A DNA stretch of 20,000 nt, from the IMG/VR virus record IMGVR_UViG_3300014050_000019. One strand, 5' to 3'. This document shows, piece after piece, positions 11,949 through 16,965 of this stretch. Numbering within the stretch: the stretch's first letter is position 1; each line of letters begins with the position of its first letter. Source of the stretch: an uncultured virus (IMG/VR IMGVR_UViG_3300014050_000019) (lineage: Duplodnaviria; Heunggongvirae; Uroviricota; Caudoviricetes). Position numbers and translations under genes: made by a program. The notes beneath the pieces are model-generated. The model worked only from the letters and a program-made list of their open reading frames with translations. It did no database searches and was not told where the DNA came from.

Positions 11949-12004
11949 TTTTTAAATAACACCTTTTCTCCGCCCTGCGGTTTATATTTTTTAGTTGAAG
12001 TCTT

Positions 12005-14634: not shown

Positions 14635-14663
14635 TTGACTTAAAATATAAATTATTTTATACT
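14635..14663 (+). promoter_or_regulatory. Sigma70-type promoter TTGACT-17-TATACT
   Basis: Near-consensus boxes with 17-nt spacing; no ORF lies between it and the terminator at 14729-14764. Confidence 0.7.
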
Positions 14664-14668
14664 TCATT

Positions 14669-14764
14669 AGTACGGGTTGTAGCATCCCACAGATTAAGCT
14701 CCCCGTATTCTATGTAGCAATACATAGTAAGACCCCAACCGAATCCGCCTTTGGTTGGGGTTTT
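14669..14764 (+). ncRNA. Candidate stand-alone structured small RNA (~95 nt)
   Basis: Own promoter; stems AGTACGGG/CCCGTATT and CTATGTA-GCAA-TACATAG, plus a 15-bp terminator stem ending in TTTT; G-U pairs favour the plus strand. Confidence 0.6.
14729..14764 (+). terminator. Intrinsic terminator
   Basis: AAGACCCCAACCGAA-TCCGCC-TTTGGTTGGGGTTTT. Confidence 0.8.
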
Positions 14765-14774
14765 ATAATATATC

Positions 14775-14783
14775 TGGTATAAT
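14775..14783 (+). promoter_or_regulatory. Extended -10 promoter TGGTATAAT (leaderless)
   Basis: 6 nt upstream of ATG 14790, no SD. Confidence 0.7.
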
Positions 14784-14789
14784 TATCAT

Positions 14790-15041
14790 ATGTCAGTAAA
14801 TCATGCTAATATTTCAGTTCCTGCGAATACCGTCACATTTGTTGCGGCAAATCCTGGACAACTTACAGTTACAAATACATCTTCAACCGCAACAGTATAT
14901 TTTGGAGATCCTTACGTAACAGCATCTAGTTATGGAGTTGCATTATCTCCTTTATCATCTGTTCATATTGGAACGCTAGATAATAATATATATGCTTTTT
15001 CTACTTCTGCGGCAACAATTTCAATCCTATACGTAGCATAA
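14790..15041 (+). CDS. Small beta-rich hypothetical protein
   Basis: 83-aa ORF with a leaderless promoter; NTSSTATVYFG...YGVAL pattern. Confidence 0.7.
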   Translation: MSVNHANISVPANTVTFVAANPGQLTVTNTSSTATVYFGDPYVTASSYGVALSPLSSVHIGTLDNNIYAFSTSAATISILYVA

Positions 15042-15098
15042 CTATTGAATTGTGCAAGACTATATGCTACTATTGTAGCCTATAGAAAAGGGCGGATC

Positions 15099-15800
15099 AT
15101 GGAAGAATCCAAGAAACCACATTACGACGTAATTATTACAACCCCAGGACATAGCATGAATCAGCTATATGTATTATCACTTGTGGGTACCATTAAAGAA
15201 TTAGAAAAAAGAGGAATCTCTTGGGCATATTTTTCACAGTATGCTTCAAATGTTGTAGAGGCTAGAGAAAATACAATTCTTGGCGGAAGTAATATTCCAG
15301 AGTCTCATAGAATCAATGAACCTATGTTTGGTTCTGTTACATATAATAAAATATTTATGATTGACTCAGATATTGAATGGCATCCAAGTGATTTCATGAA
15401 ACTTTACGAATCTGATAAAGATGCAATTGTTGGTGCATACCTTATGGCAAGTGGTGACAGAACAACTTTATGTGAGTGGAGTCCAGAAGCAGTTTATCAA
15501 GTACCCCCTCATATGGACAAGCAACAAATTCTAGATAGAACAGAACCATTTATAGTTACTGGTAGCGGACTTGGCTTTGCTTGTATTAAGAGCGGAGTTT
15601 TTGAAAGAGTTACACGACCATGGTTTTCACCAATGGTAGTAGAAGTTCCAGATAAGCTTGGTGGGTCATACCTACTAACATACTCTGAAGATATATCATT
15701 TATTTTGAAGATGAAAGATTATGGAATTAATCTATGGTGTGATCCGTTAGTAAGAGTCAACCATATCAAGACAGTTAAAGTTGGTTGGGGAAAAAGGTAA
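15099..15800 (+). CDS. Glycosyltransferase, GT-A fold (GT2-like)
   Basis: Start re-assigned to ATG 15099; AREN, MIDSD (DxD), GLGFACIK, SEDISF and HIK motifs; promoter TGCTACTAT at 15065-15073. Confidence 0.82.
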   Translation: MEESKKPHYDVIITTPGHSMNQLYVLSLVGTIKELEKRGISWAYFSQYASNVVEARENTILGGSNIPESHRINEPMFGSVTYNKIFMIDSDIEWHPSDFMKLYESDKDAIVGAYLMASGDRTTLCEWSPEAVYQVPPHMDKQQILDRTEPFIVTGSGLGFACIKSGVFERVTRPWFSPMVVEVPDKLGGSYLLTYSEDISFILKMKDYGINLWCDPLVRVNHIKTVKVGWGKR

Positions 15801-15887: not shown

Positions 15888-16283
15888 TTAAGATCTACCA
15901 GATCTTTGATAAGTTCTTATTCTATGACAATTTGCACAAACTACTTCACATTTAGCAATCTCTGCTTTTATAATCTCAATATCTTGAGTATGATTTCTAT
16001 AAGCAGAAACACTAAAGTCTTTATTATCTGAAATATGATCTAGGTCAAGCATATAGTACGGATATTTCTCTCCACAGTCTACACAGCCGAACGACTCTTT
16101 ATAATCTCTAATATGCTTATCAATAGCCCGCCTATAACTTCTTCGTCTGGTATTATAATTAACCTTAACGCTTTCGCTCAAGTGATAAGCTATAGTTCCC
16201 TTAGAGCATCCTAGTATTTCTACTATTTGATTATAAGTTTTGCCCTCAGATCTAAGCCTGAAGATATCCTCTTTATGTCTCAT
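15888..16283 (-). CDS. HNH endonuclease with N-terminal HTH
   Basis: HTH-like GKTYNQIVEILGCSKGTIAYH; CVDC...DLDH...CEVVCANCHRIRT; start re-assigned to leaderless ATG 16283. Confidence 0.85.
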   Translation of the reverse strand: MRHKEDIFRLRSEGKTYNQIVEILGCSKGTIAYHLSESVKVNYNTRRRSYRRAIDKHIRDYKESFGCVDCGEKYPYYMLDLDHISDNKDFSVSAYRNHTQDIEIIKAEIAKCEVVCANCHRIRTYQRSGRS

Positions 16284-16289
16284 AGTTCG

Positions 16290-16318
16290 ATTATACAAAA
16301 TGGATCGAATCATGTCAA
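16290..16318 (-). promoter_or_regulatory. Perfect consensus promoter TTGACA-17-TATAAT (leaderless HNH transcript)
   Basis: Minus strand TTGACA (16318-16313), TATAAT (16295-16290), then 6 nt to ATG. Confidence 0.8.
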
Positions 16319-16683: not shown

Positions 16684-16965
16684 CTATTTAATTTTATTAA
16701 CTCTTCTCATATGAGTCCTAATACGATGACAATTACTACATACGATCTCACACTTAGCAATTTCCTCATCTATCTTCTTCTTGGACAATGTAGGAATTAA
16801 TTCCATAACATTTGCATGCTTCTTGCCACGTACGTGGTCAAAATCCATGACATAATATGGATAATACTCCTTACAGTCCATGCAAGGAATAGTTTCTTTA
16901 AGGGTTCTGATGTACAGGGCCAAATTAGCCTTCTGCTTGGCTATAGAGAGCTTTTCGGACTTCAT
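16684..16965 (-). CDS. Small HNH endonuclease
   Basis: CMDC...MDFDH...CEIVCSNCHRIRT; paralog of 15888-16283 lacking the HTH; promoter TGCTACAAT at 17011-17003. Confidence 0.85.
   Translation of the reverse strand: MKSEKLSIAKQKANLALYIRTLKETIPCMDCKEYYPYYVMDFDHVRGKKHANVMELIPTLSKKKIDEEIAKCEIVCSNCHRIRTHMRRVNKIK

Follow-up and report, generated by a model that had tools for sequence, protein, structure and literature searches.

The 6C RNA (RF01066) belongs to the actinobacterial world and directs a C-rich hairpin loop at the G-rich ribosome-binding site (RBS) of dnaB, repressing it through short G-C pairing without a chaperone; in Mycobacterium tuberculosis (6C/B11) the host itself encodes it, and two of its loops are poly-C (PMC6486639). 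In phages P1 and P7 the loops of c4 RNA (RF01695) pair in trans around a phage RBS and act on ant by pairing-blocked translation, a control of antirepressor and immunity in temperate proteobacterial phages (PMC12197685). The cuckoo RNAs of Alphaproteobacteria (RSs0680/alpha-r14) consist of two to four hairpins side by side, whose stems vary while an anti-Shine-Dalgarno-like loop stays fixed; each hairpin carries CCUCCUCCC, the complement of the canonical Shine-Dalgarno (SD) sequence (PMC4615179). Lambda PreS/LPR1 is a phage sRNA that acts on DNA replication at the level of translation (bioRxiv 10.1101/2024.10.31.621285; PMC12197685), and PreS enhances host dnaN in an Hfq-dependent manner (bioRxiv 10.1101/2024.10.31.621285). 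The phage sRNAs covered in one review (PMC12197685) were found for the most part in temperate phages whose hosts are enterobacteria or other cultured bacteria. The RNA described here would work like 6C or c4 yet belongs to neither: it is a real, stand-alone small RNA gene in uncultured lake phages, it probably controls the amount of phage DNA-replication proteins made, and it represents an uncatalogued phage sRNA family with an explicit predicted target regulon.

The likeness to 6C lies in the actinobacterial setting, in a C-rich hairpin loop set against G-rich RBSs with a DnaB helicase among the predicted targets, and in a short G-C pairing that would need no chaperone. Unlike 6C, the RNA is phage-encoded and has one defined loop, UCCGCC, on its terminator, a bulged first stem and predicted phage targets with a recoded SD. 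The RF01066 model gave no match to the RNA even at E-values up to 10, and matched none of five phage records while the positive control rang in Corynebacterium; instead of the two C-run loops of 6C we find one conserved C-rich loop, AUCCCA being present in only 29 of 57 family members. With c4 it shares the proposed action of a phage RNA loop in trans around phage RBSs, but here the predicted targets are a dispersed replication regulon in genomes that lack a tyrosine integrase (0 of 5). The RF01695 model gave no Rfam match, and a further RF01695 search, run without a positive control, was also empty. Like the cuckoo RNAs, it sets hairpins of variable stem side by side and keeps an anti-SD-like loop fixed. 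The two to four hairpins with a CCUCCUCCC loop that mark those RNAs are not seen in our family alignment (A3), where the single such loop is complementary to a non-canonical SD. The resemblance to PreS is that of a phage sRNA bearing on DNA replication through translation, with the difference that the targets predicted here are phage genes and the likely host is actinobacterial.

The window, that is the whole 20,000-nt stretch analysed, is part of a 29-kb virus record and carries tail genes, a class II ribonucleotide reductase (RNR), a glycosyltransferase, a lysozyme-like SLT gene and three tRNAs. Its source is a freshwater actinophage with kinship to Stanwilliamsviridae. Judged by RNR, Streptomyces phages of that family are the nearest cultured relatives (66% identity), and the order lysozyme-glycosyltransferase-RNR is common to them and the window. 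WhiB, an actinophage marker (PMC10202952), is encoded by all five complete relatives (G001-G005, 104-113 kb), none of which has a tyrosine integrase, and the presence of the one and absence of the other make an actinobacterial host and a virulent lifestyle likely. Genomes that carry the RNA form one clade (support 100/100). Two small ORFs, at 15888-16313 (-) and 16684-16965 (+), lie among the window's tRNA-Arg, -Gly and -Asn; both have the CxxC...CxxCH motifs typical of HNH-type endonucleases, and the first also has an N-terminal HTH.

The RNA gene lies on the plus strand between predicted ends at 14669 and ~14766 (~95 nt), and its fold, homologues and covariation define three hairpins, P1, P2 and P3. 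A sigma-A/sigma-70-type promoter precedes it (14635..14663, + strand, 10 of 12 consensus positions), with the -35 element TTGACT at 14635-14640, a 17-nt spacer and the -10 element TATACT at 14658-14663. The window contains 74 promoter matches against 73 in shuffles, which puts a single match at chance level; the arrangement, in which a TTG-type -35 is followed after 17 nt by TAnnnT and the latter ends 3-6 nt short of the RNA, is nevertheless kept in 49 of 57 homologues and goes unmatched in the other eight. In the window the U-tail amounts to no more than TTTT, which pairs with the A-rich linker ahead of it, and a U-rich tail (at least 5 T in 8 nt) is present in 48 of the 57. Beyond the RNA, an extended -10 promoter (TG-N-TATAAT, 14775..14783, +) serves a leaderless 83-aa ORF (14790-15041, +, ATG at 14790). 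This ORF does not follow the RNA in L001-L014, had no relatives in a viral scan, gave a weak phrog_30212 match, and looks like a swapped-in gene.

A first-pass annotation of the letters alone had already placed the promoter, P1, a GCAA-capped hairpin and a 15-bp terminator hairpin where the sequence confirms them, and had given the next gene its separate leaderless promoter. It regarded the element as a stand-alone sRNA and not a 5' UTR, a view now borne out by covariation, the conserved promoter, one copy per complete genome and varying downstream neighbours. Those neighbours vary and include convergent tRNA genes, which speaks against a 5' UTR. The family has its own promoter and terminator, a conserved structure and no conserved ORF, along with an unpaired conserved seed and conserved complementary sites in target leaders, as in trans-acting base-pairing sRNAs.

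Homologues were collected from several anchors. The upstream gene led to 15 loci, 14 with the RNA and one cut short, and a P1-based pattern to 69. Among the best 80 of 590 lysozyme-anchored loci the loop hairpin was present in 67, and 12 of the remaining 13 end at most 909 nt from the lysozyme gene; L137, an in-clade fragment (8% complete), has no RNA at the usual site. A loop-based pattern added a shorter subfamily, with 22 of 31 distinct contexts retained and nine dropped as not clear members (L198 is borderline at 30 bits). The covariance model found a single strong copy per genome across G001-G005, gave no copy for Streptomyces phage Genie2, and revealed a third form lacking P2 (L251, a divergent member); a limit of E up to 1e-8 for alignment A3 removed reverse-strand model matches. 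In a search of 50 records only G051 gave a strong match, and the model matched neither three outgroup records at least 90% complete nor, with filters off, G053 or the first 100 kb of G018. Three family phage contigs (L247, L248 and L249) sit in GTDB bins labelled Bacteroidia and cyanobacterium and are probably mis-binned.

The annotation's statement that the RNA belongs to no named family held against Rfam, where gathering and E-value thresholds (E up to 10) returned terminator-driven chance matches only. Comparison with cultured phages by blastn gave short chance matches, a strict pattern had no hits in GTDB genome contigs, and a loose metagenome pattern returned at least 120 matches, of which the 80 tested had no model match, making that scan uninformative. 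We found no description of the RNA in the literature, and its loop and P1 words are absent from supplementary files 3-6 of Fremin et al. 2023 (PMC10690425); the family may sit among the 10,000 unnamed candidates of that study, beyond those files.

Folding of the 98-nt RNA is predicted to yield -41.4 kcal/mol (z -7.1 against shuffles), and that of its first 60 nt, without the terminator, has a z of -3.6. P1 (14670..14708, +) has a covarying 7-bp stem (14670-14676/14702-14708), an inner AGC/GCU stem and a variable apical loop, and 9 of its 11 pairs change on both sides among the 57 homologues. It also contains a G-U-Y-G bulge (14676-14679, + strand, with G14679-C14701) that reads GTTG or GTCG in 54 of 57. 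P2 (14710..14727, +) is a variable stem under a GNRA-type tetraloop; a hairpin of at least 4 bp folds there in all 57, capped by GCAA (28, as in the window), GAAA (12), GAAG (9) or GTAA (4). P3 (14728..14765, +) is a terminator-like hairpin of 15-16 bp with its loop at 14744-14749; 100% of its stem cells are paired and 7 of 9 pairs change on both sides. A covariance model built from homologues, a check that the annotation had itself proposed, shows two-sided change in 21 of 25 pairs over the whole RNA. The covariation score of 0.49 compares with 0.23 in shuffles and 0.04-0.09 for slid partners, in an alignment fitted to the covariance model with 57 members hand-picked to span the variants; the corresponding figure from RNAalifold on the family alignment is 17 of 22. 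A function on the minus strand was rejected, since G-U pairs and the U-tail favour the plus strand.

The annotation had put its emphasis on a 25-nt loop within P1 with alternative or crossing pairings. One of these, AGC/GCT, does covary. The crossing TTGT/ACAG pairing is possible in one subfamily only, has no two-sided change in any of its four pairs and is gapped in 34-37 of 57 rows; the apical loop as a whole is variable or absent, shrinking to a few bases in half of the family. Within it, AUCCCAC (window 14684-14690) is conserved across one subfamily (29 of 57) despite varying flanks. It may form a subfamily-specific pseudoknot of 2-4 bp with the P1 bulge, or bind something else; as a second seed it was rejected, its complement not being enriched at RBSs.

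Two pseudoknotted classes were rejected. HDV-like ribozymes are nested double pseudoknots with P1.1 and a catalytic C in J4/2; an HDV-like or theta ribozyme was rejected here on the lack of GG after P1, of a conserved P2 partner and of an Rfam match, and on the frequent deletion of the inner region. Type III antitoxins are tandem pseudoknot repeats upstream of a toxin gene, and ToxI, AbiQ and CptI types were set aside on the single copy, the variable downstream gene and crossing pairs without covariation. The annotation's own suggestion, a protein decoy or antitoxin-like RNA, in which a protein of host or phage would be held by the conserved bulge and loop of P1, could draw on the near-universal bulge, which has no pairing partner, and on the subfamily conservation of AUCCCAC without enrichment of its complement at RBSs. 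We nonetheless consider it very unlikely: the RNA is single-copy with no repeat array, the downstream context varies with no fixed neighbouring toxin or partner gene, and the word in phage leaders that complements the terminator loop would be left unexplained. The invariant element of the RNA is that terminator loop, which the annotation had not singled out and which matches phage RBS sites.

The loop, A-UCCGCC-U at 14743..14750 (+), is the proposed seed, with complement AGGCGGAU. As the fixed part of the RNA, AUCCGCCU occurs in 68 of the 69 P1-anchored loci, which were found without using it, and the one miss (L045) is a chance pattern match; we count the loop in this set because loop-based searches show it by construction. 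It is unpaired in the predicted ensemble, and its invariance above a covarying P3 stem suggests a seed. Were the locus nothing but a terminator region, perhaps bidirectional, plus a stabilising structure in the 3' UTR of the upstream lysozyme operon, invariant loops under covarying stems would not be expected, nor would a covarying P1, a promoter kept in most homologues, or complementary sites at RBSs. We regard this as highly improbable, even though eight homologues lack a pattern-matching promoter, L164 starts right after a stop codon, and the one informative RNA run can be read that way. In that run (X1) the window copy lies inside a 750-nt contig (depth 13) that spans upstream genes, runs through the promoter and ends at 14763, the end of P3. 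X1 also holds a relative's copy of the RNA, and it is the only run holding the window stretch; X2-X4 hold small shares that are uninformative on expression, X4 including the promoter and P1 of a relative. No discrete transcript was seen; all runs are assembled contigs, which cannot show transcript ends, strand or level, and transcription as a discrete RNA is inferred.

The loop complement has a counterpart in the leaders of phage genes. In RNA-carrying genomes GGCGG(A) replaces GGAGG before DnaE, DnaB helicase, RNR and three small genes, and it is lacking from orthologues of these genes in five RNA-lacking relatives. An unbiased test over 78 orthologue clusters, for 5-mers in at least 80% of RNA-positive leaders and absent from RNA-negative ones, put GGCGG at the head of all words with 6 clusters, followed by GCGGA with 5. 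Asked the other way round, for words in RNA-negative and not RNA-positive leaders, it gave at most one cluster for any word. GGCGG is present in RNA-positive and RNA-negative leaders, respectively, in 5/6 and 0/5 cases for DnaE, 6/6 and 0/5 for both RNR and DnaB, 6/6 and 0/4 for a 68-aa gene before DnaB, and 5/5 and 0/3 for a 134-aa gene; a gene of 91-138 aa makes up the sixth tagged cluster. At 2-10 nt before ATG in G001-G005 (as delimited by our own simple gene caller) we counted RGGCGG 37 times, RGGAGG 30, RGGTGG 12 and RGGGGG 5, and RGGCGG peaks 6 nt before ATG, as does RGGAGG. In Genie2, only 1 of 128 RGGCGG occurrences precedes an ATG, against 7 of 63 for RGGAGG, and DnaE and helicase have canonical SDs.

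Individual leaders add detail. Among 83 helicase loci (the viral contigs being the best 80 of ~476 helicase-positive ones), GGCGG occupies the RBS in eight, all in-clade, and in none of the other 75. There the word encodes a Gly-Gly of the upstream ORF, written GGC-GGR in 5/5 genomes, whereas GGA, the commonest Gly codon (6043 vs 2341), would give canonical GGAGG. Within the window, one candidate target is GGGCGGAT (15090..15097, +), the RBS of a 233-aa ORF starting at 15099 (phrog_1574), where the loop duplex is predicted at -13.3 kcal/mol, against -7.6 with GGAGG. Across leaders the predicted duplex energies lie between -12.9 and -13.9 kcal/mol, and with GGAGG between -7.2 and -8.2, loop closure being ignored. 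A second candidate, from leader comparison, is a CCGC-AGG-GCGGA mini-hairpin in the RNR leader just upstream of the SD (11968..11980, -). GGCGG is kept in the RNR leader in 53 of 62 RNA-positive loci; the nine without it retain the hairpin, while L164 and L171 have GGCGG and no hairpin. A compensatory change (CGAC/GUCG) keeps the mini-hairpin even in lineages that lost GGCGG, and it is perhaps a separate cis element.

The association of RNA and tag reaches p 0.001 by Fisher's test (42/408 vs 10/276), a value that overstates it because the RNA-positive genomes are one clade and so a single evolutionary event. No lineage was found in which a changed loop goes with matching changes in RBS leaders. 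The RNA-less fragment L137 keeps GGCGG in its RNR leader; outgroup loci L306 and L308 have GGGCGG before DnaE and no model match, in records 34-54% complete; and motif-positive fragments G054-G057 (42-76% complete) have tagged leaders and no model match. The base following GGCGG is A in 35 cases, G in 6, T in 4 and C in none (n=45), which fits pairing with the loop's U, although A also follows GGAGG in 20 of 30 cases and weakens the argument.

The best reading, and one we hold to be reasonably probable, is a loop-seed antisense RNA acting as translational repressor on a regulon of phage replication genes. Within one clade of virulent freshwater actinophages of ~105-113 kb it would act in trans, presumably transcribed from its host-type promoter; P1 and P2 would shield the 5' end and might contact a protein via the G-U-Y-G bulge, while P3 would end transcription and display the C-rich loop. 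The loop is predicted to pair over 5-8 bp, mostly G-C, with GGCGG(A/G), a putative private SD variant kept before DnaE, DnaB helicase, RNR and a few small genes, and pairing would most likely block 30S binding, damping or shutting off replication-protein synthesis as the RNA accumulates. The seed is short, a caveat on any such pairing. A stable RNA might build up and limit the supply of replication proteins as infection proceeds, or where the host grows slowly, a role as timer or dosage control and possibly as a block on co-infecting kin. Pairing with a canonical anti-SD is about as strong for the target leaders as for the remaining SD-led genes (medians of -8.4 and -8.25 kcal/mol, p 0.33); the target leaders should therefore work alone and be blocked by the loop. 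An altered host anti-SD was rejected, as AGGAG (107 of 681 leaders) and GAAAGG remain main SD words and GGAG/GGAGG stay the main SD in the same genomes.

The same pairing could carry the opposite sign, the RNA activating GGCGG genes either as a trans anti-SD adaptor, with the P1 bulge on the ribosome or a factor, or as an opener of leader hairpins such as that of RNR. In favour of activation, SD spacing is exact at the sites, and the SDs of the DnaE leaders are weak (-5.7 to -5.8 kcal/mol); the C in GGCGG costs ~4 kcal/mol against the canonical anti-SD (median -8.4 vs -12.5), and a host-type promoter implies that the RNA is there from early on, at the time when the phage needs its replication genes. 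In addition, the sequence around the loop, GGAUC-CG-CCUC, resembles the 16S 3' tail. Even so, we judge activation unlikely: for most targets, pairing with the host anti-SD is no weaker than for the remaining SD-led genes, and a natural RNA providing an anti-SD in trans is not known to us. Pairing over an SD, moreover, normally represses, as 6C and c4 illustrate (PMC6486639, PMC12197685). One version of the activation reading, in which replication-gene SDs are recoded to GGCGG and the RNA supplies the anti-SD, docked through the P1 bulge on ribosome or factor as a private translation channel, we rate as distinctly improbable; if true, it would mean preferential translation of polymerase, helicase and reductase, and a natural orthogonal SD/anti-SD pair.

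Alternatively, the loop might be aimed mainly at host mRNAs with G-rich actinobacterial RBSs, as in 6C, the phage GGCGG sites being secondary or shaped by other pressures such as avoidance of a GGAG-cutting nuclease, of which T4 RegB is an example, or binding of a phage repressor protein. That RNA/tag co-occurrence rests on one clade and that RNR leaders hold exceptions to GGCGG would suit this, as would the existence of phage sRNAs that act on host replication genes, lambda PreS among them (bioRxiv 10.1101/2024.10.31.621285). We find it unlikely as well, since the word specific to the clade's leaders complements the loop exactly, and GGAG, still the main SD, is not generally avoided.

If the repressive loop-seed reading is right, a virulent phage tags dispersed replication genes with a one-letter SD variant and addresses all of them with one sRNA that leaves ordinary GGAGG genes untouched. 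Such an RNA regulon would be compact, free of any chaperone and readable from genomes alone. The likely hosts are freshwater Actinobacteria (WhiB in 5/5 genomes), whose infections are barely accessible. The loop/RBS pair could also serve as a selective translational switch.

RNA-negative outgroup phages hold a different stand-alone sRNA candidate, at G018:C1:67183-67275 (+) (L339 7183-7275) and at G047:C1:99030-99120 (+) (L352 19030-19120). It has a perfect TTGACA/TATAAT promoter, a stem in which the internal loop C-GUUCA-GG...CC-AA-G is common to both loci, and a 13-bp terminator; the terminator loops differ and lack a clear RBS match, and Rfam gave no match above threshold. In Genie2, an unannotated 550-nt gap between genes 44 and 43 (L214 10381-10933, -) contains a promoter, a structured RNA and a terminator loop GGGCCAGC complementary to an upstream GCUGGCCC, possibly a pseudoknotted small RNA.
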